64,000 nt of DNA. It comes from an uncultured Gammaproteobacteria bacterium (GTDB lineage Bacteria; Patescibacteriota; Microgenomatia; CAZETR01; Amesbacteraceae). Positions 8,865 through 51,630 of this stretch are shown piece after piece. The first letter of the stretch is position 1. Every line of letters starts with the position of its first letter. The DNA lies in contig CAYHNU010000001.1 in assembly GCA_964358085.1 (NCBI GenBank), positions 11,220 through 75,219 on the forward strand. Reading direction: 5' to 3'. The notes under the pieces are model-generated. The model was given only the letters and a program-made list of their open reading frames with translations, was not told where the DNA came from and made no database searches. Made by a program: the position numbers and the translations under genes.

Positions 8865-10413
8865 AATTCTGCTCATATTTATTGTTTTACTCGGGTCTGG
8901 ATTGAGATTGTTTCACTTAGGCTCTCGCCCATTGGGTTTCACTTGGGACGAAGCCGCACTCGGCTACAACGCCTACTCGCTTCTCAAAACCGGCCGTGAC
9001 GAATACGGAAAAATTTTGCCCGTGGTTCTCAAATCTTTCGGCGACTATAAACCCGGAGTTTATGCTTACCTGGCTGTTCCCAGCATCGCCACTCTCGGCC
9101 TGTCTGAATTTGCCACCCGCCTTCCCTCGGCCATTTTTGGCACCTTGCTCGTTATCGTTGTTTACCTTCTTACTCGAAACGCATTTACTGCTCTGCTTTT
9201 AGCCATCAATCCCTGGTCACTCTATTTCTCCCGTGGAGCGTGGGAAGCCAACATCGCTTTGGTTTTCACCACCCTGGGTGCCCTTTTGTTTATCAAACGC
9301 CGGTATTTAACATCGGCCCTCTTCTTTGGCCTGACATTTCTCACTTACCAAGGAGCTAAAATGTTCACCCCCTTGCTTCTGGTTTCCCTTTTTTTGATTT
9401 ACCGTCCCAATATTAAATTATTAATCAAACCCCTAATTTTCCTGTTTCTCCTGTTTCTCCCCATCCTCCTGGGTCTTGGCACCCAATCCGGCCGTTTGAA
9501 AGTCTTTAGTGTCTTCAGCTACACCCGCCGTCCTGACACCATTGTGGAAATAAAACGCCAGGACAAAAATAACCCTTTCCTTTTCACTCTCTTCGATTCA
9601 GAAATCATTGATCAGGGCAGGGGAGTGCTGCAAAGATATTTAAATCACCTCTCGCCTTATTTCCTGTTCTTCGCCGGTGATTGGCAAAACCTGCGCCATT
9701 CTGTTCCGTACTACGGTTACTTCCACCTCCCCGAAATACTGACCATTCTCATTGGCCTCGTCGTCTTACTACGAACCAATAACCAACTAACTAAGCTTCT
9801 GATAGCTTGGTTGCTTTTGGCTGCTTTGCCTTCGACTCTGTCACGCGACCTGGTCTCCGGCGTTCGCTCATTGCCCCTTCTCGTTCCGCTAATTATCATT
9901 TCCGGAATCGGCCTTGCCCAACTATTTCGTCATCGTTTCCTCTTATACTCTTACACTCTTATACTCTTGTTTTTCTTTGTTTATTATCTCGACTTATTTT
10001 ATGTTCACTCTCCCAATTTCACTGCCGCCGATATGCTTTATCCATACAAACCGGCCTTGACCCTGATTAAACAACATCTGGGGGAATATCAGCGAGTCAT
10101 TATCTCCGATAAGCTCGGCCAGCCATATATTTTTACCCTTTTTTATCTGCGCATTGACCCACTGGAGTACCAGCGTCAAAGCCAGTTGACAGCCAATCCC
10201 CAGGGGGACGTGGGCCATGTTGACCGCTTTGACCAATTTGTTTTTCGCCCGCTTTTTTTGCCCGAGGATAGGTATCTACGTTCCACAATTTTGATAGGGG
10301 ACAGATACGAGCTACCTGACCCAGATCTACCATCTATTCCCAACCTAGTCATGCTGGGGGACATTAAATATCCCAATGGCGCCCCGGGTCTGAAAGTGAT
10401 CGGTCTCAAGTGA
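8854..10413 (+). CDS. GT39/GT83-family (PMT/ArnT-like) glycosyltransferase, paralog 4
   Basis: 'WDEAALGYNAYSLLKTGRDEYG', 'FSRGAWEANIALVF', C-terminal 'QPYIFTLFYLRIDPLEYQ'. ATG at 8854 (earlier ATG at 8830 possible). Confidence 0.7.
   Translation: MKSKILLIFIVLLGSGLRLFHLGSRPLGFTWDEAALGYNAYSLLKTGRDEYGKILPVVLKSFGDYKPGVYAYLAVPSIATLGLSEFATRLPSAIFGTLLVIVVYLLTRNAFTALLLAINPWSLYFSRGAWEANIALVFTTLGALLFIKRRYLTSALFFGLTFLTYQGAKMFTPLLLVSLFLIYRPNIKLLIKPLIFLFLLFLPILLGLGTQSGRLKVFSVFSYTRRPDTIVEIKRQDKNNPFLFTLFDSEIIDQGRGVLQRYLNHLSPYFLFFAGDWQNLRHSVPYYGYFHLPEILTILIGLVVLLRTNNQLTKLLIAWLLLAALPSTLSRDLVSGVRSLPLLVPLIIISGIGLAQLFRHRFLLYSYTLILLFFFVYYLDLFYVHSPNFTAADMLYPYKPALTLIKQHLGEYQRVIISDKLGQPYIFTLFYLRIDPLEYQRQSQLTANPQGDVGHVDRFDQFVFRPLFLPEDRYLRSTILIGDRYELPDPDLPSIPNLVMLGDIKYPNGAPGLKVIGLK
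9441..9460. repeat. Perfect 10-bp x2 tandem duplication cctgtttctc in PMT-like paralog 4
   Basis: Direct read. Encodes FLFLLFL. Confidence 0.6.
9941..9969. repeat. Intragenic 8-bp tandem repeat (tcttaYac)x3.5 in PMT-like paralog 4
   Basis: tcttatac, tcttacac, tcttatac, tcttg. Encodes LYSYTLILL. Confidence 0.6.
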
Positions 10414-12006: not shown

Positions 12007-12843
12007 ATGAAGGACCAAAAGAAATTAGCCATATTTGAAGGGAAAAAGATTCGCCGGCATTGGAATGGTGAACAAGAAAAATGGTATTTCTCTGTCGTGG
12101 ATGTAGTATCCGCTTTAACAGATAGCATCGATCCAAGAAACTATTGGAAGGTTCTTAAAAACAGGTTAAAGAATGAAGGAAGCGAGGTGGTTACAAAGTG
12201 TAACCAACTGAAAATGCAGGCTGCAGACGACAAATATTATCTTACCGATGTAGCCGATACAGAAGTAATGTTTCGTATTATTCAGTCTATTCCTTCTCCA
12301 AACGCCGAACCGTTTAAACTCTGGTTAGCCAGGGTTGGCTATGAGCGGATCGAGGAGTCTCAAGATCCAGAACTGGCCATTAACCGGGCTTTAAAAGCCT
12401 ACCTGAGAAAGGGTTATAGCAGAGATTGGATTAACCAACGTTTAAAAAGCATTGAAATTCGAAAAGCCCTGACGGATGAATGGGAAAACAGAGGAGTTAA
12501 GGCTGGCGACGAGTTTGCCATTCTGACTGATGATATTACCTTTGCTTGGGCGGGGATAACTACCAAGCGGTATAAAAATTACAAAGGGCTTAAGAAGGAA
12601 AACCTGCGAGACAATATGACTAATTTGGAATTGGTCTTGGATATGCTGGCCGAAACGGCTACCACCGAAATTTCCCAAAAGCGTAAATCGCAGACATTTA
12701 TGGGTAATCGGCGAGTTGCGAAAGAGGGTGGAGGCATAGCCGGCAATGCCAGAAAACAGATTGAGGCCAAGACTGGCAGGAGAATTGTGAGTAAATACAA
12801 GTTTATCCCTGCAAGTGCTCGAAAAACATTAAAAAACGTATGA
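12007..12843 (+). CDS. DinD-like / BRO-N domain protein (DNA-damage-inducible protein D family)
   Basis: 278 aa. N-terminal 'FEGKKIRRHWNGEQEKWYFSVVDVVSALTDS...NYWKVLKNRL' matches the BRO-N/DinD pattern. Central 'FAILTDDITFAWAGITTKRYKNYKGLKKENL...LAETATTE' matches my recollection of E. coli DinD. Starts 1 bp after the upstream stop, and its stop overlaps the next start (ATGA). Confidence 0.55.
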   Translation: MKDQKKLAIFEGKKIRRHWNGEQEKWYFSVVDVVSALTDSIDPRNYWKVLKNRLKNEGSEVVTKCNQLKMQAADDKYYLTDVADTEVMFRIIQSIPSPNAEPFKLWLARVGYERIEESQDPELAINRALKAYLRKGYSRDWINQRLKSIEIRKALTDEWENRGVKAGDEFAILTDDITFAWAGITTKRYKNYKGLKKENLRDNMTNLELVLDMLAETATTEISQKRKSQTFMGNRRVAKEGGGIAGNARKQIEAKTGRRIVSKYKFIPASARKTLKNV

Positions 12844-13619: not shown

Positions 13620-14605
13620 TCAAAGTCGGTTTTATTACATCTCCCCTGCACGACGCCAATGCTGCCCGCGGCGTCGGCTCCTACACCCGCCGCCTCCTAG
13701 AAAGACTCAAAGTTCAAAGTTCAAGGTTCAATATTGAGATTTTAGAAATTAAAAATGACCATGAACTACAAACTATGAACTATGAACTCGTCCACTACCC
13801 ATACTTCGACTTATTTCGGCATACCTTGCCAATTTTTAATAAATCCAAAATTGTAGTCACCCTTCACGATGTGATACCGTTGGAATTTCCTGATCACTAC
13901 CCCCCCGGTCTCCGCGGCAGGCTTAATCTGCAGTTGCAAAAATTGGCCCTGGCCAACGTAGAACGTGTCATTACCGTTTCCTATGCTTCAGTACAAGCAA
14001 TACGAAAGTATCTGCTTGTACCTCACGCTAAACTCAAACTGGTTTACGAAGCCGCCGACCCCATGTTTAAAAAGATTTCTAAACCCAAAAACAAATATCA
14101 TCTGCCCAAAAAATTCGTTCTCTACGTCGGAGATGTGAATTGGAATAAAAATATACCCAATTTAGTTAAAGCTTGTGAACAAATAAATTACCCATTGGTA
14201 ATAGTGGGTAAACAAGCAACTGAAGTAGAAAAACTGGACCTAAACCACGCTGAACTGCGGCATTTACAAGGAGTAGATTGGTCGGCCGTTATCCGCTCGG
14301 GTTTTGTGGCAGACGAAGATTTGGTACATATCTACAATTTGGCCACCGTTTACTGCCAGCCGTCCTTATCCGAAGGCTTTGGCCTGCCTGTCGTGGAAGC
14401 CCTGGCCTGCGGCACCCCTGTAGCCTGCAGCAATACTTCATCCTTGCCGGAAATAGCGGAGGATAACGCCACATATTTCAATCCCTATGACGTCGATGAT
14501 ATGTCCCAAGCTATAATTAACGCTAAGCCTCCACAAAGCAAGCCAATGTTTTCATGGGAGGAAACTGCCAAATTGACTCTGATGGTTTATCGGGAAATAT
14601 TATGA
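13616..14605 (+). CDS. GT4 (GT-B fold) glycosyltransferase
   Basis: C-terminal 'QPSLSEGFGLPVVEALACGTPVACSNTSSLPEIAED' is the typical GT4 E-x7-E region. ATGA overlap at both ends. N-terminal region carries repeat insertions (13708-13785). Confidence 0.65.
   Translation: MIKVGFITSPLHDANAARGVGSYTRRLLERLKVQSSRFNIEILEIKNDHELQTMNYELVHYPYFDLFRHTLPIFNKSKIVVTLHDVIPLEFPDHYPPGLRGRLNLQLQKLALANVERVITVSYASVQAIRKYLLVPHAKLKLVYEAADPMFKKISKPKNKYHLPKKFVLYVGDVNWNKNIPNLVKACEQINYPLVIVGKQATEVEKLDLNHAELRHLQGVDWSAVIRSGFVADEDLVHIYNLATVYCQPSLSEGFGLPVVEALACGTPVACSNTSSLPEIAEDNATYFNPYDVDDMSQAIINAKPPQSKPMFSWEETAKLTLMVYREIL
13708..13785. repeat. Composite repeat block in the GT4 N-terminus: (caaagtt)x3, then tta gaa att aaa aat core, then cat gaa cta caa act atg aac tat gaa ctc
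   Basis: Direct read. Encodes KVQSSRFNIEILEIKNDHELQTMNYEL. Confidence 0.7.
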
Positions 14606-15714
14606 AGTTTACAGCAATTCTAAAATATTTTGTCCTCTGGCAGGCGGCAATAATCATTATGGCCATTGCCGCCCAATATTCTTCCCTGCCTTTGCGGGAG
14701 ACGTATTTAGGCAGCGGTACCCAAGGGTATATGGAGAAACCTTGGTTCTACTCCCGGGAGAACTTCGACGGAATGCACTACACGTACATCGCCCGCCGGG
14801 GCTATGGCTACTCCCAACAGGCCTTCTTCCCCCTTTATCCGGCCATCATGCGCCGCATCATGACTTTGCCGATTCTCAACAACGCTGTTCTTGCTGGGAT
14901 CCTAGTCTCGGTAGTATCTTTCTTAGCCGGACTATACCTTTTTACCAAGCTCGCTCTATTAGATTACTCTCCTACAGTGATCAAGTGGACTGTTTTAGCA
15001 CTTTTGTTTTTTCCCACCAGTTTCTTCTTCACCTCCATTTATACCGAAGGTCTGTTCTTTTTCCTGACCATCGCCGCCTTTTACTCCGCCCGCACCCGCC
15101 GCTGGTTGCTGGCAGGCATATTTGGGGCCTTGGCCAGCTACACCCGCTTCATCGGCATTTTTCTCCTTCCCGCACTTCTTATCGAATGGTGGCAGCAGGG
15201 CCGCCGCTTTAGGCACTTCTTGCCTCTTCTTTTGATTCCACTTGGCCTGGGAATTTACATGAATTATCTAAATAAGACAGTAGGGGATCCGTTGGCCTTT
15301 TTCCACGTCCAGGTCAATTTTGCCCAGTTAAGAAGCGAGAAACTGATTCTCCTCTACCAAGTCTTCTGGCGTTACGTAAAAATGCTCTTTACCGTTAACC
15401 GGTCTGACCCCCTGTATTTGACCATTATCCTGGAACTTGTCACCGGAGTAGCCTTTCTAGCCACCACTGTCTACTCTTTCATCAAGCACCGTCTATCCTA
15501 CGCCGTCTTCAACTTCCTAGCCTACCTCACTCCCACTCTTACCGGTAGCTTCACATCTTTGCCCCGTTACGTCCTCCTCTGTTTCCCGTCGTTCTTGCTT
15601 ATCGGCGAATTATCGTCCCGCTCTCCCTTGGCTCGCAAGATCATTTTCGGCACCTTCGCCCTGGCCTTCATTATTTTTCTCTCCCTCTTCGCCCGGGGAT
15701 ATTGGGTATCATAA
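14602..15714 (+). CDS. GT-C membrane mannosyltransferase candidate, PIG-V (GT76)-like
   Basis: Multi-TM. 'FDGMHYTYIARRGY' resembles the conserved WDxxHYLxIAxxGY motif of the PIG-V/Mannosyl_trans2 family. ATG at 14602 overlaps the upstream TGA. Confidence 0.45.
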   Translation: MKFTAILKYFVLWQAAIIIMAIAAQYSSLPLRETYLGSGTQGYMEKPWFYSRENFDGMHYTYIARRGYGYSQQAFFPLYPAIMRRIMTLPILNNAVLAGILVSVVSFLAGLYLFTKLALLDYSPTVIKWTVLALLFFPTSFFFTSIYTEGLFFFLTIAAFYSARTRRWLLAGIFGALASYTRFIGIFLLPALLIEWWQQGRRFRHFLPLLLIPLGLGIYMNYLNKTVGDPLAFFHVQVNFAQLRSEKLILLYQVFWRYVKMLFTVNRSDPLYLTIILELVTGVAFLATTVYSFIKHRLSYAVFNFLAYLTPTLTGSFTSLPRYVLLCFPSFLLIGELSSRSPLARKIIFGTFALAFIIFLSLFARGYWVS

Positions 15715-16458
15715 ATGAATACAGCTGATTTATCGGTGGTCATGCCGGTATATAAACAAGAAAATAAAGTGGTGCTGTATCTTAAAAATTTGGATAAAAT
15801 TTTGGCAGAATTAAACATAAACTATGAAATTATTTGTGTAGTTGATGGTTTTTTAGATAATACTTTTAAAAATGCAAAAAAATACATTAATAAAAGAATT
15901 AAAGTAATTGGTTATGAGAAAAACCAGGGTAAAGGTAACGCGGTTAGATTTGGAATGTCACACGCGAAAGGAAAGATAATAGGTTTTGTAGACGGAGGAT
16001 TTGACCTTAAATATACATCGATTCCCTTAGCTTTGAAACACATGAAGTGGTATGACGCGGATATTATTATTGGGTCCAAACGCCATCCAGCATCCAAAGT
16101 AGCATATCCCTGGCAAAGGCGAATTTTGTCCTGGGGATATCAGATAGGAGTGAGGTTGTTATTTGGAATTAATATCCGGGATTCACAAGTAGGCATTAAG
16201 TTTTTTAAACGCGAAGTGATAAAAAAAATAATGCCTAAACTTTTGATAAAGGAGTTTGCTTTTGATATCGAAATGTTAGCGGTTGCCAACAGAATGGGCT
16301 TTTCCCGGATTTATGAATTTCCTATTGAATTGGAATTAGAATTTGGCACATCTTCAATTGCATCAATTGGTTTTTTTAAAACTGTTTGGAACATGCTGTG
16401 GGACACCTTGGCCGTCTTTTACCGTCTGGAAATCCGGCACTACTACGACGATGTGTAA
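15715..16458 (+). CDS. GT2 glycosyltransferase (short, DPM1/GtrB-like)
   Basis: 'LSVVMPVYKQENKV', 'VVDGFLDNT', 'GKGNAVRFGMSHAKG', 'FVDGGFD'. 247 aa soluble GT-A. Confidence 0.6.
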   Translation: MNTADLSVVMPVYKQENKVVLYLKNLDKILAELNINYEIICVVDGFLDNTFKNAKKYINKRIKVIGYEKNQGKGNAVRFGMSHAKGKIIGFVDGGFDLKYTSIPLALKHMKWYDADIIIGSKRHPASKVAYPWQRRILSWGYQIGVRLLFGINIRDSQVGIKFFKREVIKKIMPKLLIKEFAFDIEMLAVANRMGFSRIYEFPIELELEFGTSSIASIGFFKTVWNMLWDTLAVFYRLEIRHYYDDV

Positions 16459-21451: not shown

Positions 21452-22578
21452 ACATTCTTATGCTTTCCTGGCGCGGTCCCGGCCACCCCAACTATGGCGG
21501 AGCCGAGATCGTTTCACATGAACATGCCAAAGCCTGGGTAGCTGCTGGTCACCAAGTAACCTTATTCACCTCCTATTTTCCTGGCGTTCCTCAAGAAGAG
21601 TTTGTTGACGGGGTGAAAATAATTCGCAGTGGAAACCAACTAATTACGATTCAACTTGCGGCTATGTATTGGTATTTGTTTGGCCGCCATTCCAAATATG
21701 ATTTGGTTATTGATCAATTTCATGGTATCCCTTTTTTTACTCCGCTTTTTGTCAGAACCAAAAAATTGGCATTTATCCATGAAGTGGCTAAAGAAGTTTG
21801 GTGGATAAATCATTTACGCTTCCCCATTAATTACATATTTGGCACAGCCGGGTTTATTTCCGAACCCTTAATTTTTCGATTTTTTTATCGTCACATCCCT
21901 TTTTTTACCGTATCCCAGTCCACAAAACAAGATTTGATCAAGTGGTCCATCCCTGCTTCAAATATTCATATAATACCTAACGGAGTCACCACTTTACCTG
22001 CTAAATTTGCCAAAGAAAAAATCCCAACCGTGATTTTTTTAGGCGCTATCGCTCAAGATAAGGGAATTGAAGATACACTGTTTGCCTTTTCACACATTGT
22101 CAAACTACATCCCCAGTGGCGTTTATGGGTTGTTGGTAAGAGTGAACCGACCTATCAGGCTAAGCTGGATGAACTCGGCCTTCACTTAGGAATTAATTCT
22201 CGGCTCAAATTCTGGGGCTTTGCGAATGAGCCAAAAAAATTCGAACTTTTATCCCGGGCCAATGTGATGCTTAACCCATCAGCCAGAGAAGGCTGGGGAT
22301 TAGTGAATATTGAAGCTAATTCCGTCGGCACACCCGTTGTCGCCTACGATGTTCCCGGTTGTCGTGACTCTATCCAAGACCAGATCACCGGATTTCTTTG
22401 TCCCAAAGGCGATATTTCCTGTCTTGCTAAAACCTGCGTCCGCCTTGTGAGTGATAATAAGTTGTATGAAAAAATGTCAGCTCAAGCAATAAAATGGTCT
22501 CAGCAATTTTCCTGGACCAAATCAACTTCTATTAGCCTCAAGCTTATTGAGACTTTACACACAACAAATCCGCGTTGA
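21448..22578 (+). CDS. GT4 glycosyltransferase, member 3 of a tandem triplet
   Basis: 'MNILMLSWRGPGHPNYGGAEI', 'NPSAREGWGLVNIEANSVGTPVVAYDVPG'. N-terminus nearly identical to member 2. Confidence 0.65.
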   Translation: MNILMLSWRGPGHPNYGGAEIVSHEHAKAWVAAGHQVTLFTSYFPGVPQEEFVDGVKIIRSGNQLITIQLAAMYWYLFGRHSKYDLVIDQFHGIPFFTPLFVRTKKLAFIHEVAKEVWWINHLRFPINYIFGTAGFISEPLIFRFFYRHIPFFTVSQSTKQDLIKWSIPASNIHIIPNGVTTLPAKFAKEKIPTVIFLGAIAQDKGIEDTLFAFSHIVKLHPQWRLWVVGKSEPTYQAKLDELGLHLGINSRLKFWGFANEPKKFELLSRANVMLNPSAREGWGLVNIEANSVGTPVVAYDVPGCRDSIQDQITGFLCPKGDISCLAKTCVRLVSDNKLYEKMSAQAIKWSQQFSWTKSTSISLKLIETLHTTNPR

Positions 22579-23404
22579 AGAGTGAATCCTGGGGGTAATC
22601 TATCAATATTTTTTGAATTGAAAGGGTAGACACTTTTTTGGTAATGTTATTGATTTCGAAAATTTTGAATTTACTCTTCTTAAGAAGATTTAGATACTCC
22701 CGACCAGAACTTCCACACAGGCGCAACCCTCTTGGCCAGAACTCGGTTAAAAGCTTCAGTTTTTTACTTTTCCTTATTATTTCTGATGCACCAGTTAAAG
22801 TTTTTGTCTCCGAGCCTTGAATGTCCATCTTAATGACATTAATTCTTTTCTCTTTATTTTTTAAAAAAGTGTCCAATTTGATTGTACCTATAGAAATAGA
22901 TACCCGATTGCCTTCTGGGTCATAAATACGTTGATCGCCGAAATTGTCTTCATTACTCAAAAAAAGTTTGGCAGTACCATCTCTATCCGACACGGCTTTG
23001 TTAATTAGTACTACGTTTTTATATCCATTTAACTCCACGTTTTTTTTAAGTAATTCGAAATTTTTGGGAAGTGGTTCAAACGCATATACCCTTCCTTTAT
23101 CCCCCACTTTTTTCGCGGCAATTAATGTGTAATACCCAATGTGTGCTCCTATATCAACGACAATGTCTCCCAAATTAATACTTTGTTTAAAAAGTTCCGT
23201 TTCAAATTCTTCCCATTTTCCACTCAACAATAACTCCAGTGAAATAACTCGGTCATCTTTATCAATATACATCCGGTGGCCATCGACTATTACTGATTCT
23301 GGTTTAAAAAAATTTATAATTCTGGAGGCGATGTTCTTAGTATGAGGATTTTCATAGATGGGGTGTACGATTTTCCATAAAATTCCTCTAAACATAAGTA
23401 CCAT
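22544..23404 (-). CDS. FkbM-family SAM-dependent methyltransferase
   Basis: 'VVDIGAHIGYYTLIAAKKVGDKGRVYAFEPLPKNF'. The 'FG(N/T)...D(I/V)(E/Q)G.E' tail 'KMDIQGSET' is typical of the Methyltransf_21/FkbM family. Confidence 0.6.
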   Translation of the reverse strand: MVLMFRGILWKIVHPIYENPHTKNIASRIINFFKPESVIVDGHRMYIDKDDRVISLELLLSGKWEEFETELFKQSINLGDIVVDIGAHIGYYTLIAAKKVGDKGRVYAFEPLPKNFELLKKNVELNGYKNVVLINKAVSDRDGTAKLFLSNEDNFGDQRIYDPEGNRVSISIGTIKLDTFLKNKEKRINVIKMDIQGSETKTLTGASEIIRKSKKLKLLTEFWPRGLRLCGSSGREYLNLLKKSKFKIFEINNITKKVSTLSIQKILIDYPQDSLFNADLLCVKSQ

Positions 23405-23453: not shown

Positions 23454-24431
23454 ATGGCAGTAGAAGCTCGAATTAATACAGTCTCTAATGGGGACACGGA
23501 GATTCTCGTCCCCCTGCACGGAGGTACCTATCAAGTGGTTTGGGAACGTTCTTGGGGGAGTGGTGTTTTTAATCCTTCCCCAAATCAATTTTCAGACTTT
23601 GCCCGAGGCATTAATTATGTAAAAGGGGGCGAGCACAAACTTCTTTTTGGTGTCACTCTTAACGGTGCCTGCCCGGCCGATTGTCTGGATTGCCCCTTCG
23701 GGCGCACAATTATGGCAAAACTTTATACCAGTCTAACTGACAAACAACTCACCCTAGCTCGTCCAATCAGCTCTTCAGAATTACAATCTGCTCTCGAGCG
23801 TGCAAAAGAAATAGCCATAAAGAATGGTATTCTAAGCCAAAACGAAGTGTTTGCAGCAGGAGCCCTTCTGGCGGGAGATCCTGGTTATAGCCCTCACATT
23901 CCCGACCTCATAGCCACGGTTAGCGGTTTTACTGGTTGTGAAGCCTGCCGTTGGTCTACGGTTGCGCCCGATACTGAAAACAATGTCTTGGGGGCTTTTA
24001 TAGAGGGAGCAACTCGAGCCAAGGAAGCCAACCCGACCCACACGCTCAGTTTTCAAGTCTCCCTTCATAGTACCGACCATCAGGAACGTATCAACCACAC
24101 GGGTGTTTCTCGTCTTCTGTCGATGCAAGAAATCTCAATGACATCTCAAAGAATCAGAAAAATTACTGGTAGAAAATTATCTCTTTCCTTTGTATTGCAT
24201 GAAGGATCTGTATTAGATCCACAAGTATTAAATGATAATTTCTCTCCTGACAACAACCTTATCTCTCTACGACCTATCTATTCTCGCATTACCAATCCCA
24301 TAAATCCGGACAGGTTGATAGAACTTTATTCAAAATTAAGAAGCGACAATTGGGATGTGGTTTATATGCCCCCAAGTCAAAGCTATACAGAAGGTGGGCG
24401 GCCAATTGAATTACACAACATGAGAAGCTAG
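23454..24431 (+). CDS. Hypothetical protein with CX3CX2C cysteine motif (possible divergent radical-SAM-like or metal-binding enzyme)
   Basis: 325 aa. 'GVTLNGACPADCLDCPFGR' = C-x3-C-x2-C, plus a later 'GCEACRW'. Visibly higher GC than flanking genes. Lone plus-strand gene between two minus-strand genes. Confidence 0.35.
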   Translation: MAVEARINTVSNGDTEILVPLHGGTYQVVWERSWGSGVFNPSPNQFSDFARGINYVKGGEHKLLFGVTLNGACPADCLDCPFGRTIMAKLYTSLTDKQLTLARPISSSELQSALERAKEIAIKNGILSQNEVFAAGALLAGDPGYSPHIPDLIATVSGFTGCEACRWSTVAPDTENNVLGAFIEGATRAKEANPTHTLSFQVSLHSTDHQERINHTGVSRLLSMQEISMTSQRIRKITGRKLSLSFVLHEGSVLDPQVLNDNFSPDNNLISLRPIYSRITNPINPDRLIELYSKLRSDNWDVVYMPPSQSYTEGGRPIELHNMRS

Positions 24432-25216
24432 GCGGGTGGATTGTAATAGCCCATTGCTGCCTTAATGGCCATTAAGAGGACATCAATTTTTTTTCTAAAT
24501 CCCACAATCTTAGTAGGGGTTTTGCCCTGCGGAGGGTAACATCGCACAACTGGAATCTCGACACTTCGTAGTCCCAATCGGTTGGCGCGAGCGGTCACAT
24601 AAAACAAAATTTCGTAATTGCTAAAAACATTTCTAAATAATTTCAACCTTGAATTAAGAAGTAATTTTCGGCTATGGGCCCGAAAACCATTACTTGTGTC
24701 CGTGTATATCTTACCAGCCGCTAAATTGAGAATTGGAGTGAACAAGTATCTGTTTGCAAATTTCCTTTCTAGCGGGGTATTGACCGCCCGGCCACCTTTT
24801 GCGTATCTGGATCCTTGAATATAATCAAAACCCTCATCTAGTTTTTTTATAAAACTCGAAATTGCTTCTACCCCATCTTTACCATTTCCATCCATCTGCA
24901 CTACCCCTCGATAACCATTTTTAAGCGCAAAGGTATAAGCCATCCGGTACTGCGCCCCCAATTTGCCCGGACCGGTTTTTACAAGCAAAGCTGTCACTCC
25001 TTGATTTTTCAAAAATTTCGGATCAGTCGAACCGTCAGTGCTACCTCCGTCGGCAATAATAATGTCCACCAACTTCGCATACTTCTTTACTTTTTGTAGT
25101 TGTTTCTTAAACTTATCTCCTTCATTAATAACAGGGATGACCAGACAATATTTGGTCTTTCTTTTCTTAAACTCGATCTTTTTAAAACTCGGCACCTCCC
25201 AATCCTTTTTCACCAC
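24428..25216 (-). CDS. GT2 polyprenyl-phosphate sugar synthase (DPM1/GtrB-like)
   Basis: 'YCLVIPVINEGDKF', 'IIADGGSTDGS', 'VVQMDGNG', 'GSRYAKGG'. 262 aa soluble. Divergently paired with the GtrA-like gene. Confidence 0.65.
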   Translation of the reverse strand: MVKKDWEVPSFKKIEFKKRKTKYCLVIPVINEGDKFKKQLQKVKKYAKLVDIIIADGGSTDGSTDPKFLKNQGVTALLVKTGPGKLGAQYRMAYTFALKNGYRGVVQMDGNGKDGVEAISSFIKKLDEGFDYIQGSRYAKGGRAVNTPLERKFANRYLFTPILNLAAGKIYTDTSNGFRAHSRKLLLNSRLKLFRNVFSNYEILFYVTARANRLGLRSVEIPVVRCYPPQGKTPTKIVGFRKKIDVLLMAIKAAMGYYNPPA

Positions 25217-25291
25217 TCAATTATACAGAAGAACTTACAACATCTGTATAATTGTCTTGTGGTACAAACTTTTATACAATTCGTGCGGTTT

Positions 25292-25648
25292 ATGTTTGTG
25301 GGCGGATTGGCAGTAGGGGTTGATTTTGTGGTTTATTTTGGGTTGTTATTTTTACTACCAGTTATTCCTATTTCTTTGGCCAAAGCTATATCTTACATCT
25401 GTGGAGCAACTGTTTCATTTATTGGCCACCGGTATTTTGTATTTGAAGCCCACGACCGCCACCCGCAGCATCAAATCCTGCCCTTCAGTGTTCTCTACAG
25501 CAGTTCTTTAGTAGCCAATAACTTAACCAACCTAGTTATTTTAAATCTGACGGGAGTAAAAATCTTGGCCTGGTTTGTGGCCATCTGCTTATCAACTACA
25601 ATAAATTATCTGGGCATGAAATTTGGGGTGTTCAGGAAAATTAATTAA
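25292..25648 (+). CDS. GtrA-family small membrane protein (polyprenyl-P-sugar flippase-like)
   Basis: 118 aa, 4 TM. 'FVRFMFVGGLAVGVDFVVYFGLL', 'GHRYFVFE'. 'KILAWFVAICLSTTINYLGMKFGVF' is typical of GtrA-like proteins. ATG at 25292. Confidence 0.6.
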   Translation: MFVGGLAVGVDFVVYFGLLFLLPVIPISLAKAISYICGATVSFIGHRYFVFEAHDRHPQHQILPFSVLYSSSLVANNLTNLVILNLTGVKILAWFVAICLSTTINYLGMKFGVFRKIN

Positions 25649-25692
25649 ATCATACCTCTTTACACTTTATAAAAATATGATATATATGACGT

Positions 25693-26733
25693 ATGAAAGT
25701 TTTAGTGACAGGTGGAGCGGGATTTGCAGGAAGTCATGTTTGTGAGTATTACAAAAACGCCGGAGCAAAAGTTATTGCTTATGACAGCTTAACTAAATTT
25801 GAACTGCGTCGTACTGGATATTCTACAGAAAAAGCTCGATTTCATAATGTAGACTTTCTAAAAAAGATAGGTATTGATGTTGTTAAAGAAGACATTCGGG
25901 ACCGGGAGACACTGGAGTCATACGCAAAAAAAGCTGATTTTATTATTCATACAGCCGCCCAACCAGCGATGACTATTTCTTGGGAAGATCCGGAATTGGA
26001 TTTCACCACCAACGTCGTGGGGTCATTTAATGTACTAGAAATTGCACGTAAATATAAAATACCTACAGTATCTTGTGCGACCATTCACATTTATGGCAAC
26101 AAAATCAATGATGAGGTCAAAGAAGGGAAAACTCGCTATATCAGACGCCCAACAGAGATTGATGAAAATCATAGATTAGTTGAAGGATTGTTGACCCCAT
26201 TGCATGCTTCTAAACACACCCTAGACCTTTACACTCAAACTTACATCGATACATACAAACTCCCTTTGGCGTCTTTTAGACTCACAGGTCTGTATGGATC
26301 TCGTCAATTCGGTGGTGAAGATCATGGTTGGGTGGCCAATTTCGCCATTCGTTCCGTCATGGGTTATCCATTAACTATCTTTGGTACCGGCAAACAAGTG
26401 CGAGATATTTTGCATATTTCAGATCTTACCCGAGCTTTCGACGCTTTTTACAAAAAACAAAAAGCCGGAGTGTACAATATTGGCGGGGGAACTAAAACCA
26501 CTCTCTCACTAATTGAATGTATCCATTTGATTGAAAAAATATTGGGCAAGAAATCTAAAATTAAATACCAGCCTTCGCGGATGGGGGACTTGGTATATTT
26601 TGTTTGTAACACGACCAAAGCCCAGAAAAATCTAGGCTGGTCTGCCAAAGTTACTCCGGATAAAGGTGTTAGGGAACTAGTTAATTGGGTTCAAGAAAAT
26701 AAACATCTTTTCGAGATCAAAGATGCAAAGTAG
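25693..26733 (+). CDS. NAD-dependent sugar-nucleotide epimerase/dehydratase (extended SDR; CDP-paratose-epimerase/UDP-Glc-4-epimerase-like)
   Basis: 'MKVLVTGGAGFAGSH' Rossmann motif. 346 aa extended SDR length. Confidence 0.65.
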   Translation: MKVLVTGGAGFAGSHVCEYYKNAGAKVIAYDSLTKFELRRTGYSTEKARFHNVDFLKKIGIDVVKEDIRDRETLESYAKKADFIIHTAAQPAMTISWEDPELDFTTNVVGSFNVLEIARKYKIPTVSCATIHIYGNKINDEVKEGKTRYIRRPTEIDENHRLVEGLLTPLHASKHTLDLYTQTYIDTYKLPLASFRLTGLYGSRQFGGEDHGWVANFAIRSVMGYPLTIFGTGKQVRDILHISDLTRAFDAFYKKQKAGVYNIGGGTKTTLSLIECIHLIEKILGKKSKIKYQPSRMGDLVYFVCNTTKAQKNLGWSAKVTPDKGVRELVNWVQENKHLFEIKDAK

Positions 26734-27502
26734 TGTCAAGATCGGTGTCATTCCTGCCGCTGGATCTGGTAGACGACTGGGTTATCTATCGGGACTTCTT
26801 CCTAAAACCTTATTTCCTCTATACGACCGTCCTATCATTCATTACGTTGTAGATCAAATGCAGAAGGCGGGGATTGAAGACATTTACATTATTGTTAATG
26901 TTTACAAAGAAAAAGTCATAGAGTACTTCAAGCCAGTGCAAATGGATCTGAGATCCAATATTCATTTTATCGAGCAGAAGGAGTTAAATGGTACCGGGGA
27001 GTCCATTCTTTTAGCTGAAAAATATGTAAAAAAGGAACCTTTCATGGTCATATACGGTGACGATTGTACTATTACTGAGTCACTGGAGCCCATGATCAAT
27101 AATTTTTTAAAGACTAACGCTTCAGTAATGGAGGGTGTGGTCAAAGAGACGGATTTAGACATACTTCGACATACATGCTCTGTAAAAATGGCTAAAAATG
27201 GCAAAATGATCGAGATTATTGAAAAACCCGAATTCCCCCCTTACATGCTTAGGGGCTGTGGGGTTTACTTATTTAGACCCGATATTTTTTCTCAAATCAG
27301 ACAAACTCCAATTCATCCAATTCGTAAAGAAAGAGAAATTACATACACTATCAATAACCTTGCAAAACAAAATAAGGCATATGGGTTTCTAATAAATGGT
27401 TACAACATTAACATTAATGATTACGATGAATTACTTAAAGCCAGTCAGCTTCTAAAGGATAGTAAAAAGAATTCAAAAAAGGTTATTGAAGTTCTCTTCT
27501 AG
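26723..27502 (+). CDS. Sugar-1-phosphate nucleotidyltransferase
   Basis: 'IGVIPAAGSGRRLGYLSGLLPKTLFPLYDRPIIHYVV' is the G-x-G-x-R-L NTP_transferase signature. Confidence 0.6.
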   Translation: MQSSVKIGVIPAAGSGRRLGYLSGLLPKTLFPLYDRPIIHYVVDQMQKAGIEDIYIIVNVYKEKVIEYFKPVQMDLRSNIHFIEQKELNGTGESILLAEKYVKKEPFMVIYGDDCTITESLEPMINNFLKTNASVMEGVVKETDLDILRHTCSVKMAKNGKMIEIIEKPEFPPYMLRGCGVYLFRPDIFSQIRQTPIHPIRKEREITYTINNLAKQNKAYGFLINGYNININDYDELLKASQLLKDSKKNSKKVIEVLF

Positions 27503-27503
27503 A

Positions 27504-28346
27504 TTATCTTGGTCTCGAAAGATAAACCAATGGAGTATACAAGCCCCGAGACGCCAACCATTTTAGAAAACCACCCATCTTCAAGGTGCGAATAATCTTA
27601 GAAATAAATTGAATGTAAATACTACGACCGTAAATCTCGTTTGATGTCAACTGACGCGACCACTCTGGCAGACCTAAGTTTTCAAATTCAAATCCTTGTT
27701 TCCTTAAAGCTAACTCAACCGATTTATGTGTTACAAATCTTAGCTCGTCAAAAAACTTCTTATTAGTTCTTCCGGCAAGTTGGCAACACCACCATTTCCA
27801 TATGTCTGGACCGGGAGGGAAAAAGATATAAAAATGTGGTTCATAAGGAATATTATAATTCGGTGTTTCAATAAATAATCTTCCCTCTTTTTTGATTACT
27901 TTTCGCAACTTTCTTAAATAATCATTTAGGTCAGCGACATGCTCAACTGTTTCGAAAGAGGAAATAAAATCGAATTTCCCCTTTAATCTAAAGGCATCAG
28001 GAGTAGATTGAATTCTGGAGGGAGAAATATTATTTGCTCTCAGCATTTCTTTTGCAATATTTCGGGCAACGGGATCAATTTCGTATCCGTAATAATTATA
28101 TCCGGCCAAATTGGCTGCAGCCACAAGTGTGCCTATACCGCAACCGGCGTCCAAACAAATATTATTCTGTCTCACTCCAATCACTTTCAATCTTTTTATT
28201 TGTACAATTGCACTTTCCAATCTGTGTTTAGCAAAATCTGACATTGCGTACGATTTGGGAATAACTCCGCTATAAGTGGCTTCATAGTATTTGACAATTT
28301 TTTCCCACAGATACTGGGAAATTTTTACTTTATTAATTTTTAACAT
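27504..28346 (-). CDS. Class I SAM-dependent methyltransferase
   Basis: 'CLDAGCGIGTLVAAANLAGYNYYGYEIDP' (motif I). 280 aa. Confidence 0.6.
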   Translation of the reverse strand: MLKINKVKISQYLWEKIVKYYEATYSGVIPKSYAMSDFAKHRLESAIVQIKRLKVIGVRQNNICLDAGCGIGTLVAAANLAGYNYYGYEIDPVARNIAKEMLRANNISPSRIQSTPDAFRLKGKFDFISSFETVEHVADLNDYLRKLRKVIKKEGRLFIETPNYNIPYEPHFYIFFPPGPDIWKWWCCQLAGRTNKKFFDELRFVTHKSVELALRKQGFEFENLGLPEWSRQLTSNEIYGRSIYIQFISKIIRTLKMGGFLKWLASRGLYTPLVYLSRPR

Positions 28347-30099
28347 TTTTTAATTTTCTTAATAGTTCTCTTTTTTCATCAGTTACGTCTATTAAATTTC
28401 TACTTTGAAGTCTGTACACGTAGATGTTTTCTAATTTTACCGGAAAGTAGGGGCCTGGCATAAATCTCTTTAATGATTGTCCGTCCAAATACGCCGACTC
28501 CACCTCTAGCCAAATATTAGTAGCAGCGATATTGTACCAAGGAGCGAAATCAAATTGGAAGGATGCAATCACTGGAAACCCAAAAATAAAGGCATGTTGT
28601 AAAATTTCGGGATCATCTCCCTCAAAATAAAATACTAAAGGCTCTTTGGGGTTGCCAAAGTTCTTAGCCCGTTTGATTGAACCTCTTAATCGATCTGTAA
28701 GTTCAATTCCCCTAACTTCTGACAAGTGATATAGGTATCTATAGCTGGTTTTGGCGTGCAGGCTAAACAACAGTCCAAACATCATAATCAAAACTAACTT
28801 TCTTTTTAAATCTGTTTTAGTGGCCAGTGGTACAGCCATAAGCCAGGCAAGCCCGGCTCCTGAAACGATCAAATATCTACCGGTTATTTCATACAAAAAG
28901 CCAGGGTTGCGCAGCCAAGGCGCAATGAAGCCACCAATCATCATAAAAACGGACAGCACCAATATCAATCGCAAATTATTTTGCCCTTTTAGTTGGATCC
29001 ACCATAAAATTACCCAGATTAAGAAATATCCACCAATTAAATAGGTAAATAGTTCAAATGGTTCTACGGGTGAGGAAGTTTTTGCTATAAATTCTTGCCA
29101 CACATATGCAGTCCAGCCGCCACCCACGAGGAGTCCACTAACTAGTTCGATCCTTTTTGACTTAAAGAAAACCAGCCAGATTGCAAAGCCGGCAAAGACG
29201 GGAATAACCGCTCTTCTAAAAGTTCTAGGCAGTCCCCAATGCTCAAGCCTCTGGTACATAAAATCATTGGGTAAAATAATCTTGCCAAGTTGGCTTATGG
29301 GAGAAAGAAAGATTTTATAATTTTTTTCTTGGTAATGTTTGATGACTAAGCCGTAGTTTTTGATAAGAGCGGCCGTGCCGCGAGCACCGACTGCCCCCCC
29401 AATACTGGTATATTTTAGAATCGATGTAGTAAGAAGAATATATAATCCAATTCGAAAAACCGTTAGAACTGTTTTCTTCCAGTTGAAATTTGTTATCAGC
29501 CAGTATATTTCCAAACCAATCATCAGGGCTGGCAAAAACAGCATGCGGATAGGCTGGGAAATGATGGCAATTACAAATAGTAATGCCAAAATTGTCCATA
29601 TCCAAAGATTATTTTTAGAGCGGGTTATAGTAAAAACACCTAACAAGGTATTCATAACCGCAATGGCCGCGTAGGACGGCATGTTAAATGACCAGTCGGT
29701 TGTTTCCAGACCTGTCACTGTTATAGAAAAAAACGCTGCCGATCCCAGACTAGCCCATTTGTTTCTAGTCAATTTATATACTGGCCATAAAAAAGACAAC
29801 GATGCCGTAAGCCTTAATAAAAAAGAAAAAATATAATAAACCTTATGATTAAATCCAAAATAGTGGTGAATAGTAGCAGTCAACGTATCCATTGGTCCAT
29901 AGTCGCTAAAGAAAAATGACAAGTTGTTCAGTTTTTCACCCCCCCATCCATTTGTATAAAAATCGTATCTCCACAGGCCTAAATAGTCATCGCCAGTCAA
30001 AGCTAAATTAAAGCTAGGTAGTAGGGTGACAAAATATATGCCAAATAATAAGAAAATCCCCACGACCCAAAATTTATGCGTTTTCATAAACATCATCAT
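28333..30099 (-). CDS. Polytopic membrane protein, GT-C-like candidate (shares the GDD N-terminal loop with the giant membrane proteins)
   Basis: 588 aa, at least 12 hydrophobic segments. 'LALTGDDYLGLWRYDFY' near the first loop, comparable to 'GGDDMRLYYMYP' at 46224 and 'GGDDSRLFYLYP' at 48442. Confidence 0.45.
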   Translation of the reverse strand: MMMFMKTHKFWVVGIFLLFGIYFVTLLPSFNLALTGDDYLGLWRYDFYTNGWGGEKLNNLSFFFSDYGPMDTLTATIHHYFGFNHKVYYIFSFLLRLTASLSFLWPVYKLTRNKWASLGSAAFFSITVTGLETTDWSFNMPSYAAIAVMNTLLGVFTITRSKNNLWIWTILALLFVIAIISQPIRMLFLPALMIGLEIYWLITNFNWKKTVLTVFRIGLYILLTTSILKYTSIGGAVGARGTAALIKNYGLVIKHYQEKNYKIFLSPISQLGKIILPNDFMYQRLEHWGLPRTFRRAVIPVFAGFAIWLVFFKSKRIELVSGLLVGGGWTAYVWQEFIAKTSSPVEPFELFTYLIGGYFLIWVILWWIQLKGQNNLRLILVLSVFMMIGGFIAPWLRNPGFLYEITGRYLIVSGAGLAWLMAVPLATKTDLKRKLVLIMMFGLLFSLHAKTSYRYLYHLSEVRGIELTDRLRGSIKRAKNFGNPKEPLVFYFEGDDPEILQHAFIFGFPVIASFQFDFAPWYNIAATNIWLEVESAYLDGQSLKRFMPGPYFPVKLENIYVYRLQSRNLIDVTDEKRELLRKLKNVKN

Positions 30100-30116: not shown

Positions 30117-30950
30117 ATGGTCAAATCACTGGTATCAATCATTATTCCGACATATAACGAGGAAAAAGTTATTGATCGTTTGCTTGTGTCTATCAATAAT
30201 CAGTCTTATCCCAGAATTGAGAGTCTAGTTATAGACGATAGTTCTACGGACGGGACTCTCAAAATAGCTTCTCAAATAGCCACGGTTGTCATCAAGAGAA
30301 AACATGCCGAGAGGAGTATTCAAAGAAACTACGGAGCCTCGATATCTCACGGAGAATATTTGCTCTTTTTGGACGCTGATATGCAACTTGCCCCCGATGT
30401 TGTTTCAGAGTGTATTCAAAGAATACAAAGTGATGCAAGTATTGGGGCAATAGCTATCCCTGAACAGCCAATCGCCAGTAATTTTCTAGAAAAAGTCAAA
30501 GCCTTCGAGAGGTCTTTTTATAGTGAAAAAGGAGATCCAGATACAGATGCCGCTAGGTTTTTCCCAAGGAAACTATTTCAAAAGGCGGGTGGATATGACG
30601 AGACGATTACCGGTCCTGAAGACTGGGACTTGCCAGAAACTATCGTCAAGATGGGCTACAAAATAGGCCGAATTTCCACTCGCATAAGGCATTACGAAAG
30701 GATTCCGTCGCTTTTAAGTCTTATTAAAAAAAAGTATTACTACGGTCTTTCATCACACCGATATTTTAAAAAACACAACCTTTCAATAGTTGGTCCCAAG
30801 ACCATCTATTTTTTACGCCCCGTATTTTACAAAAACTGGCGGCAGTTAGTCCGTAATCCGATTCTTACAGTCGGTATGCTCGTGGTACTCGCATTAGAAC
30901 AATTATTTGGGGGATTAGGATATTTAGTTGGAAAAATTAAGCGGGTATGA
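30117..30950 (+). CDS. GT2 glycosyltransferase with C-terminal TM (ArnC/GtrB-like)
   Basis: 'VSIIIPTYNEEKVIDRLL', 'VIDDSSTDGT', 'FLDADM'. C-terminal 'ILTVGMLVVLALEQLFGGLGYLVG'. Confidence 0.65.
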   Translation: MVKSLVSIIIPTYNEEKVIDRLLVSINNQSYPRIESLVIDDSSTDGTLKIASQIATVVIKRKHAERSIQRNYGASISHGEYLLFLDADMQLAPDVVSECIQRIQSDASIGAIAIPEQPIASNFLEKVKAFERSFYSEKGDPDTDAARFFPRKLFQKAGGYDETITGPEDWDLPETIVKMGYKIGRISTRIRHYERIPSLLSLIKKKYYYGLSSHRYFKKHNLSIVGPKTIYFLRPVFYKNWRQLVRNPILTVGMLVVLALEQLFGGLGYLVGKIKRV

Positions 30951-51400: not shown

Positions 51401-51630
51401 TTGGCTACGCCAATTTATGGGAAATTAATCCTCAAATTATTCAGATTGACTTTCCTAAGTCAGATTATCAAATAATGTCAGATGGAAGTTTGAAATTAAA
51501 GTTAAAGCTATACTTTCAACCATATAATTATTTTTGGACAGTAAATATTATATCTGCATCGGCATATGCGTTAGGAATAGCTTATGTATTGTTATCTATA
51601 TTCATTAAATTTATTAAAAAACAGAAATGA
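48442..51630 (+). CDS. Giant polytopic membrane protein, paralog 2 of 3 (extra N-terminal soluble domain)
   Basis: About 1062 aa. 'YYLGGDDSRLFYLYPQEF', 'FRNMFDKFAYAMAFQWAF', C-terminal 'VFGYANLWEINPQI'. ATG at 48442 (TTG alternative at 48427). Very AT-rich. Confidence 0.55.
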   Translation: MFNFVFFVRLLAIWGTILVVFTTFSVYQDIKQNKLLNYTDTYSSSSVDIKSEYKSSGILKYVFKFLAHDDYLGTMTFKYFRLRENQGQVIFRIKEISQKDWYAENRYDFSYFVNDDIYQFGFPEIKNSKGKQFIVEFEIVSQTLMKDQRSLDLKTAPILTVKYVFPRDTYYKSVGKLSTIVLNRSISVLTEMDYVKVFISSFLIAMFFLIALSRQENETGPKIIIRQKVLQKNVQILSNWTNKINPFIVPGVVLIILSLGFVSGNYVLAERMSVQLWATLFGSVVFYILQVTIFNRLSNLIKHINTISANTLSILDDLMNKKLLLLMGTLFVIVSGMSATYYLGGDDSRLFYLYPQEFLDNYISKIVSDTGVSQLTNLIPPTSLSAFTIIMIGLRNILYQFNLQALLNSANLVGGFFAFYYLLNYLLKPTDKYERVICVLASFMYVFSIFNFYTLLNSRLIAEYLISLFPLSLYLGIKAIREGKFYLFILATLIWSAFSFLSVTLPLSGAVLITSIPLLIFATWKHKIRIIAYLVGAGLLFAVLNLHWFMFIPYTNFSKNIPGSYTPSLTSVEFRKQNEIGIRTVSDINNSFFPLLNSYHRKIQINFNWPHLPIYLSWYSKILILGYLLIAVVIIAGIRIEKNKQRKGIYVALVINFVLAVYFFTVNIGPWGVDVFLWLSNHIPGFVIFRNMFDKFAYAMAFQWAFLISVSLIVIVKSIKKTMFKEYLLFAIFLIAIINAKPFLLREFVNLPYWTSKYSHDGITAFNSDYLDLLKFVKNQDGVGRYLSLPLLTGNSVIVEGEKQKDHYYAGVSPLLLLTGKNDMSGLMSFGEHSNKVFKWLTKKDYDSFGQLLQQYNVKYIILSNSTSEDLQPSFMFSDGLFYLQTKSFYQSIIGQKVRDFGSRYSLFEINSKYLSEKIYITDSPGSFVNQEANLSFKKLATHEYEIEVSDLRKQLSLVFLDPYLKEWQLLTPSGKELSTEYHHPVFGYANLWEINPQIIQIDFPKSDYQIMSDGSLKLKLKLYFQPYNYFWTVNIISASAYALGIAYVLLSIFIKFIKKQK

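Follow-up and report, generated by a model that had tools for sequence, protein, structure and literature searches.

A DGNxKD-type family 2 glycosyltransferase and a divergently encoded GtrA-family protein in a glycosylation island of a patescibacterium

In Gtr-type glycosylation systems, a family 2 glycosyltransferase (GT2) makes a polyprenyl-phosphate-linked sugar, the translocation of which is assigned to a GtrA-family protein, and a GT-C enzyme transfers the sugar outside the cell. The GtrA/GtrB/Gtr(type) systems of Shigella and Salmonella phages and the CsbB/GtcA/YfhO systems of Bacillus and Listeria follow the same logic as the system described here, which is encoded on 64,000 nucleotides (the window) of contig CAYHNU010000001.1 (positions 11,220 to 75,219 of the forward strand; GenBank assembly GCA_964358085.1), from a bacterium placed by GTDB in the Amesbacteraceae (Patescibacteriota). 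In the window, a GT2 gene (24428..25213, minus strand) and a gene for a small GtrA-family membrane protein (25259..25648, plus strand) are divergently arranged, and all three parts of the Gtr-type machinery are syntenic. The gene pair belongs to a known kind of system, and its core was correctly read in an earlier annotation made from the DNA letters alone (the sequence-only reading); the novelty lies in the subtype of the GT2 and in the gene fusions that tie this subtype to its partners. It is fairly probable, in our judgment, that the pair is the cytoplasmic-face half of a three-component extracytoplasmic glycosylation system.

Other described enzymes share parts of this arrangement. The type III dolichyl-phosphate mannose synthase (DPMS) of Pyrococcus furiosus (PfDPMS; PDB 5MLZ) bears a GtrA-like transmembrane domain on the same chain as its catalytic domain (PMC12992685), with the catalytic domain first, whereas the window has two divergent genes. 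GacI/GacJ/GacL of Streptococcus pyogenes and PpgS/Rv3632 of Mycobacterium tuberculosis are like the window in that a small membrane partner is encoded adjacent to the GT2 and a GT-C enzyme uses the product. In S. pyogenes, the small membrane protein GacJ binds GacI, a predicted cytoplasmic enzyme, and reduces its Km for undecaprenyl phosphate by a factor of about 17; in some cases the two are a single fused protein (bioRxiv 10.1101/180810). However, GacJ and Rv3632 are DUF2304 proteins and not members of the GtrA family, and flipping is assigned to a separate Wzx-type protein; Rv3632, as a homolog of GacJ, was dropped as a precedent for a GtrA partner (bioRxiv 10.1101/180810). The NCBIfam model of PpgS matches two further GT2s of the window, at 58749 and 15715, but not the GT2 of the pair. 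The synthase of the ArnC/ArnE-ArnF/ArnT pathway, ArnC, possesses two membrane helices, has chain lengths of 322-363 amino acids (aa) in its solved structures, and carries the motif DADLQN, whereas the window GT2 is 261 aa long and carries DGNxKD. Unlike in lipid A modification, no genes specific to 4-amino-4-deoxy-L-arabinose are present in the window.

The GT2 of the pair had been described as a soluble DPM1/GtrB-like enzyme, a description that held in its family relationship and not in its canonical form. A hydropathy scan of the protein revealed no transmembrane segment, and no helix was clearly amphipathic by hydrophobic-moment scan. The Pfam model PF00535 was barely passed (28.3 bits versus a cut-off of 23.3), and no NCBIfam equivalog cut-off was reached, the best match being AglJ at 41.6 bits versus 325, with ArnC at 24.9 bits versus 529; the NCBIfam models that matched at all were those of AglJ, Dol-P hexose transferase, ArnC, and PgfS. 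Significant matches among PDB sequences were to PfDPMS and ArnC only, and GtrB was matched weakly (E 0.33). The AlphaFold2 model, made with 21 homologs in the alignment, had a pLDDT of 92.1, and the top 13 structures in a Foldseek search with this model were ArnC, PfDPMS, and GtrB. The predicted protein has a GT-A fold, with enzymes of the DPMS, GtrB, and ArnC type as its nearest solved structures, and lacks the membrane helices that follow the catalytic domain in GtrB, ArnC, and PfDPMS. Such a helix-free polyprenyl-phosphate glycosyltransferase has a precedent in GacI (bioRxiv 10.1101/180810). The protein did not cluster with processive polymerases by sequence or by structure; a processive synthase of the cellulose, chitin, hyaluronan, or poly-N-acetylglucosamine type was ruled out by the structure ranks and the absent membrane helices. 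By its sequence, the GT2 is a relative of the named polyprenyl-phosphate glycosyltransferase families and a member of none, and it falls in a subfamily of its own that we name for its DGNxKD motif.

The signature of this subfamily, D109-G-N111-G-K113-D114 (codons 24875..24892, minus strand), replaces the D-x-D-x-Q/E metal-binding motif of DPMS, ArnC, and GtrB. It was found in 251 of 270 family sequences and is invariant in the family alignment, as are 44 positions in total, and it aligns to DADLQH in PfDPMS, DADLQN in ArnC, and DADLEY in the canonical GT2 of the window at 58749. The metal ligands of PfDPMS are Asp91 and Gln93, and its Asp89 is in contact with the mannose (PMC12992685); when these roles are carried over by alignment, the first, sugar-binding Asp is kept in the DGNxKD GT2, and the metal ligands Asp91 and Gln93 correspond to Asn111 and Lys113. 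The nucleotide-binding motifs PxxNE and DGGSxD are retained, as is a GSR motif. With neither metal ligand retained, the GT2 may act on the diphosphate by a chemistry unlike the canonical one; the lysine could, for instance, cover part of the role of the metal. A word-based search yielded more than 6000 homologs of the GT2, the closest at 80% identity, and an exhaustive profile search yielded 278 clusters (50% level) with E values up to 1e-30, followed by a sharp drop to generic GT2s. Relatives with 50-57% identity occur in bacteria of the candidate phyla radiation (CPR), Alphaproteobacteria, Acidobacteriota, Gemmatimonadota, Candidatus Kuenenia, and Paenibacillus, and relatives also occur in Planctomycetota, the GT2 being 50-55% identical between CPR bacteria and Alphaproteobacteria, Acidobacteriota, Planctomycetota, or Paenibacillus; members are furthermore carried on plasmids of Cereibacter, Roseobacter, Sphingomonas, and Psychrobacter. 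In public databases they are everywhere annotated merely as 'glycosyltransferase family 2 protein'. What is new in the GT2 itself is thus an uncharacterized subtype that is unusually conserved across phyla, is devoid of a membrane anchor of its own, and is changed in both metal ligands.

Also new is the fusion ('Rosetta-stone') evidence that ties the DGNxKD GT2 to GtrA and GT-C partners. Two homologs (P0129 and P0143) are natural fusions of GtrA and GT2, in which GtrA comes first, and at a further locus (L016) GtrA, the GT2, and a PMT_2-type GT-C domain are encoded in one uninterrupted open reading frame (ORF) of 919 aa. At no fewer than 12 of 80 genome loci, the GT2 shares a chain with a membrane domain of about 520 aa, which in some cases matches PMT_2; the GT2 is also found fused to a TIM barrel or to members of the membrane families DUF6541 and DUF6798. 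A hidden Markov model (HMM) built from the GT-C domain of 13 fusion proteins found no match in the window, and the GT-C partner therefore differs between lineages. Adjacency was measured across 81 loci. A GtrA gene lies within 1 kb of the GT2 gene in 30 of them, usually directly upstream on the same strand, and within 5 kb in 39; the corresponding counts are 36 and 67 for a large polytopic membrane protein, 35 and 60 for a TIM-barrel gene, 28 and 59 for a gene encoding an oxidoreductase dependent on flavin adenine dinucleotide (FAD), and 1 and 28 for a full-length GtrB-like gene. On a plasmid of Cereibacter sphaeroides (CP031752.1, locus at 24.6-31.6 kb), a 'GtrA family protein' is annotated directly upstream of a GT2 fusion. 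The Psychrobacter plasmid pA22P4 (10.8 kb) has an SMR-family transporter in the place corresponding to GtrA; besides GtrA, SMR is the family for which flipping of polyprenyl-phosphate-sugars has been proposed.

The GT2 and GtrA genes are part of a seven-gene module, comprising a 588-aa protein, a nucleotidyltransferase, an SDR enzyme, GtrA, an FkbM methyltransferase, the GT2, and a 325-aa protein with a CxxxCxxC motif, which is kept together in the window and in the two closest relatives, L005 (Microgenomates bacterium Gr01-1014_16) and L006, despite rearrangement. Identity with the L005 and L006 orthologs is 80% for the nucleotidyltransferase, 89-91% for the SDR enzyme, 61-72% for GtrA, and 73-78% for the GT2. 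Head-to-head adjacency of the GT2 and GtrA genes is specific to the window genome; the pairs of L005 and L006 are still divergent and lie 0.9 and 1.9 kb apart, with the FkbM methyltransferase gene (and, in L006, one more gene) in between. Downstream of GtrA and in the same direction, an SDR-type nucleoside diphosphate sugar (NDP-sugar) epimerase/dehydratase (25693..26733, plus strand; PF01370, 6.9e-40), which in NCBIfam comes closest to dTDP-glucose 4,6-dehydratase and GalE without reaching either cut-off, probably tailors the donor sugar. It is followed by a sugar-1-phosphate nucleotidyltransferase (26723..27502, plus strand; PF00483, 3.4e-26), with models of the RmlA, GalU, and GlmU type as the nearest in NCBIfam, likewise below cut-offs, which probably makes the NDP-sugar donor.

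The candidate for the third component, an extracytoplasmic transferase, is the polytopic 588-aa membrane protein (28333..30099, minus strand), encoded 2.7 kb from the GT2/GtrA pair. This protein had no Pfam match, hhalign gave it a probability of 1% against the PMT_2 paralogs of the window, and a profile search of PDB sequences returned noise only. Its 32 homologs keep G36-D37-D38 directly after the first helix. The structural model (pLDDT 89.8) scored 16.4 against AglB and STT3B, 15.4 against AftA, 14.3 against PglB, and 13.1 against ArnT, and the predicted GT-C fold of the protein is settled by this structure comparison alone. Since the 588-aa protein has this fold and the module is syntenic, all three components are present together with the enzymes of donor supply: a lipid-sugar synthase, a small transporter candidate, and a GT-C protein are encoded together, as in Gtr-type three-component systems. 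The sequence-only reading had named the pair the core of such a system, and this is supported by the fusions with GtrA and GT-C domains and by the syntenic 588-aa protein, with the reservation that the GT2 is non-canonical.

The GtrA assignment was upheld in full. The small protein matched PF04138 at E 4.9e-19 (69.1 bits versus a cut-off of 26.1) over model positions 1-117 of 117, no mismatch to the topology of the family was seen, and this gene gave the one GtrA match in the 64-kb window. Four hydrophobic stretches are present at about residues 8-30, 33-56, 71-93, and 99-121, of which a crude 19-residue hydropathy scan resolved just three. The protein aligned without large gaps to GtrA proteins of 129-143 aa; R10, F11, D22, H57, and K121 (in the numbering of a 129-aa protein) are invariant in an alignment with its orthologs and proteobacterial GtrA proteins, and the Arg-Phe start and the NYxxxKxxVF-type helix ends of the family are kept. 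Two observations on GtrA sequences elsewhere are recorded here. In Alsobacter ponti (L068), an 871-aa ORF (6523..9138, plus strand) located 0.7 kb upstream of a DGNxKD GT2 has a C-terminal GtrA domain (residues 745-856), preceded by about 740 residues without a Pfam match. In a Woesebacteria relative (L007), an 11-residue trace at the place of GtrA (9548..9580, minus strand; PISLAKTLSNI versus PISLAKAISYI; non-significant E of 1.5) is possibly what is left of a decayed GtrA gene.

Both genes of the pair are real, far beyond chance, as confirmed by the PF04138 match and the more than 6000 GT2 homologs, and their ORFs lie at the coordinates given before, on the minus and plus strands; the limits of the genes needed adjustment. 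The GT2 ORF (24428..25216, minus strand) opens with two tandem GTG codons. The previously given length of 262 aa applies if the first GTG (25216) is used; the second GTG (25213) is the start in the public gene call and in the closest homologs (MKKDW...), which gives 261 aa. For GtrA, the frame is open over 25100..25648 (plus strand), and the sequence-only reading and the public call both begin at ATG 25292, giving 118 aa. The GtrA orthologs in L005 and L006, however, begin with GTG 11 codons farther upstream (MVQT and MTQA); the 11-codon segment shows synonymous changes relative to them (GTA/GTT, ACT/ACA, and CGG/AGG) and includes an Arg-Phe pair found without exception in GtrA proteins, from those of CPR bacteria to those of Proteobacteria. 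For these reasons GTG 25259, giving 129 aa, is favored as the start. The gap between the genes, put at about 75 bp before, is 78 bp by the public calls and becomes 45 bp (25214..25258) with the preferred GtrA start. Within the gap, a TATAAT box (25247..25252, plus strand) precedes the GtrA GTG by 6 nt, with counterparts 7-11 nt before the GTG in L005 and L006. A scan of 24300..25800 for promoters and terminators gave nothing above shuffled expectation, and a regulatory role of the box is putative.

From the folds, fusions, and synteny described above, we infer the following scheme, including its lipid acceptor, its sugar, the contact of GT2 with GtrA, the translocation step, and the GT-C proteins served. 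The nucleotidyltransferase and the SDR enzyme would make and tailor an NDP-sugar, and the GT2 would move the sugar from this donor onto polyprenyl phosphate at the inner face of the membrane, in a reaction of the type catalyzed by DPMS, ArnC, and GtrB. Itself devoid of a membrane anchor, the GT2 would work on the GtrA protein, which would keep it at the membrane and probably also carries the polyprenyl-phosphate-sugar to the outer face. Outside the cell, a GT-C enzyme would use the lipid-linked sugar, with the 588-aa protein as the first candidate and the other GT-C proteins of the island as possible users.

Several observations count against this scheme. The GT2 was weak on every curated model and does not have the DxDxQ/E motif that binds metal in its solved relatives, and the soluble enzymes GpgS and MpgS also ranked high in structure searches with its model. 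The GtrA protein is about 20% identical to the GtrA proteins of proteobacterial operons, whereas the GT2 proteins are 52-55% identical. Furthermore, the pairing of GtrA with GT2, although real in the window and repeated in other genomes, is not general: at 42 of the 81 loci, GtrA genes are absent from the 5 kb around the GT2, most CPR relatives have none nearby, and the Woesebacteria relative keeps the SDR and nucleotidyltransferase genes divergent from the GT2 gene without a GtrA gene. A TIM-barrel gene (60 loci) or an FAD-oxidoreductase gene (59 loci) accompanies the GT2 in other phyla at more loci than GtrA does (39 loci), and neither is present in the window. Finally, flipping of a lipid-linked sugar has not been directly shown for any GtrA protein (PMC11127046), so that 'flippase' is an unproven label for the family; the fusions fit a role of GtrA as membrane anchor or activator equally well.

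This last point leads to the alternative that fares best, which we consider possible although clearly less probable than not: the components are the same, but GtrA is the membrane anchor, or an acceptor-presenting or activating subunit, of a split enzyme, and translocation occurs by other means or unassisted. Such a role would suit a GT2 that has no membrane segment and is fused, depending on the lineage, to whichever membrane protein is present, be it GtrA, a GT-C domain, or a two-helix GtrB-like protein. It would also find parallels in the GtrA-like transmembrane domain of PfDPMS and in GacJ, which stimulates GacI while flipping is assigned to a separate Wzx-type protein (bioRxiv 10.1101/180810), and it agrees with the lack of a direct demonstration of flipping by GtrA (PMC11127046). 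On the other hand, the SMR transporter at the place of GtrA on the Psychrobacter plasmid fits a transport role, the PfDPMS study proposes flipping through the GtrA-like domain of that enzyme (PMC12992685), and anchor and flippase roles are not mutually exclusive.

We regard it as unlikely that the adjacency of the two genes is incidental, with GtrA being operonic with the SDR and nucleotidyltransferase genes and serving the other DPM1-like GT2s without transmembrane helices (58749 and 15715), and the DGNxKD GT2 acting independently. The window is so dense in GT2, GT4, GT-C, and methyltransferase genes that neighbors are easily over-interpreted, it has a single GtrA gene for three DPM1-like GT2 genes, and both the scarcity of GtrA genes near the CPR relatives of the GT2 and the genes that intervene between the two in L005 and L006 would be accommodated. 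Nevertheless, GtrA+GT2 fusions occur within the same GT2 family, the 30 of 81 loci with GtrA within 1 kb are far above chance for a family with few genes per genome, and the linkage is kept in the two closest relatives despite rearrangement. Very unlikely indeed is a DGNxKD protein that is not a polyprenyl-phosphate glycosyltransferase at all, and that is instead a soluble GpgS/MpgS-like enzyme acting on a small phosphorylated molecule or a non-catalytic GT2-like subunit: the missing transmembrane segment and clearly amphipathic helix, the two changed metal ligands, and the frequent linkage and one fusion to sugar-isomerase-like TIM barrels would fit it, but fusions to GtrA and GT-C membrane domains make little sense for an enzyme of soluble metabolites, the 44 invariant positions, with PxxNE, DGGSxD, and the sugar-binding Asp among them, argue for an active enzyme, and it is a co-operonic GtrB-like partner, not the DGNxKD protein, that has a degenerate DXD motif.

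This GtrB-like partner is part of a wider module in other phyla. At most non-CPR loci and some CPR loci (e.g., L003), the gene order is FAD oxidoreductase, GtrB-like GT2, two TIM-barrel genes, GtrA (not always present), and DGNxKD GT2, to which a GT-C domain or gene may be added. In the window, HMMs made from related loci detected no TIM-barrel or FAD-oxidoreductase gene. The GtrB-like partner (L073, 7383..8399; L031, 13512..14537; L025, 7359..8351; L057, 4932..6089) is full length, resembles GtrB, PgfS, and ArnC, and retains two membrane helices, and the position of its DXD motif is not conserved, reading DIQFD, DSIFY, DVHCD, or NANYD, respectively; as judged from this motif, the partner may be a non-catalytic membrane scaffold. 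On plasmid pA22P4 (L085), a 592-aa ORF (4987..6765) joins a GtrB-like part to the DGNxKD GT2, of which the gene table of PLSDB, incomplete by design, gives just 5980..6765 as the GT2 gene. The cargo of this plasmid (1913..8201) is a minimal module of an NAD(P)-dependent oxidoreductase, a TIM barrel, the SMR transporter, an FAD oxidoreductase, the 592-aa ORF, and a 479-aa polytopic protein, and the NAD(P)-dependent oxidoreductase adjoins the FAD enzyme. An oxidase together with a reductase recalls the epimerization of a lipid-linked sugar by DprE1/DprE2. A literature search for a module of GtrA, TIM-barrel, FAD-oxidoreductase, and GT2 genes found no paper.

A broader and tentative reading, to which we give no great weight, is that the DGNxKD proteins are widespread, detachable catalytic subunits with interchangeable membrane partners, perhaps independent of divalent metal. 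The partner would be a GtrA protein, a GT-C enzyme, or a GtrB-like protein whose active site is degenerate, with GtrA as the sole partner in the window. By analogy with DprE1/DprE2, the FAD oxidoreductase and one or two TIM-barrel proteins resembling sugar isomerases may edit the sugar while it is borne on the lipid, and the window would hold a cut-down CPR version of this module.

The remaining genes of the seven-gene module and its immediate surroundings were also compared. The FkbM-family methyltransferase gene (22544..23404, minus strand; PF05050, 3.9e-21; TIGR01444, 3.3e-33) is followed by the gene for the 325-aa protein (23454..24431, plus strand), which is convergent with the GT2 gene and overlaps its stop by 4 bp, an arrangement kept in L005 and L006. 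The 325-aa protein had no Pfam, NCBIfam, or PDB sequence match; the cysteines C73-x3-C77-x2-C80 (CPADCxxCPF) and an AGDPxY stretch are invariant in three orthologs, and on these motifs the protein could possibly be a very divergent radical-SAM enzyme. On the other side, a 277-aa GT2 that is not DPM1-like (30117..30950, plus strand; PF00535, 7.2e-29; best NCBIfam match TIGR04283) is divergent from the 588-aa GT-C gene and syntenic with the module, with a 72% identical ortholog in L005. This gene was one of four further GT2s listed as DPM1-like by the sequence-only reading. The label clearly suits the GT2 at 58749 (minus strand), which matched AglJ (8.7e-35) and PpgS (5.7e-19) near full length, and moderately suits that at 15715, which matched the PgfS, ArnC, and PpgS models over most of its length; the GT2s at 12840 and 30117 are of other types and matched TIGR04283, SunS, or EpsD-type models, mainly in the N-terminal part.

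Of the approximately 15 GT-C candidates that had been counted in the window, nine were recovered by Pfam matches to GT-C-type membrane families (GT87, six PMT_2, two of which are below the Pfam cut-off, PTPS_related, and PIG-V) and the 588-aa protein (28333) by its fold; about five more (3047, 35481, 46224, 48427, and 52065) are large polytopic proteins for which the GT-C label is putative. The protein at 55903 was rejected as a GT-C enzyme, being a Wzx-type polysaccharide transporter. The segment 1677..12005 holds five paralogous PMT_2-type GT-C genes (phmmer E 1e-49 to 1e-83 between pairs), of which four follow one another in tandem on the plus strand and the fifth is on the minus strand; they have an invariant DE..GYNAYSL stretch after the first helix, and 61002..62372 encodes a weak sixth relative. 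Between this array and further glycosyltransferase genes stands a gene (12007..12843, plus strand) whose product has a Bro-N domain (PF02498, E 1.1e-07), as is typically seen in phages and mobile elements. A PIG-V-type GT-C gene (14554..15714, plus strand; PF04188) is followed from the very next base by the DPM1-like GT2 gene without transmembrane helices (15715..16458, plus strand), so that 14554..16458 looks like a second pair of lipid-sugar synthase and GT-C enzyme in the island. Two paralogous giant polytopic proteins of 741 and 1067 aa (46224..51630, plus strand; phmmer E about 1e-90) have no Pfam match, and the first of them carries GGDD directly after its first helix, comparable to the GDD of the 588-aa GT-C protein. 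The G+C content is about 0.45-0.51 in the first 16 kb, with a marked negative GC skew, 0.31-0.34 at 46-52 kb, and 0.40-0.46 after 56 kb; by composition, the glycosylation island looks like a mosaic.

Should the locus prove to be just another Gtr-type system, three proteins that currently go by 'hypothetical' or a generic name still gain a clean annotation. If the DGNxKD protein is an active polyprenyl-phosphate glycosyltransferase, its family widens what this class of enzyme can look like, and the existence of cultivable carriers, namely Cereibacter sphaeroides, Erythrobacter longus (DSM 6997), and Paenibacillus, makes both the mechanism and the role of GtrA as flippase or anchor addressable. 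Despite their tiny genomes, Patescibacteria devote tens of kilobases to surface glycosylation, and a gene for the lipid-linked donor is an entry point to that chemistry.

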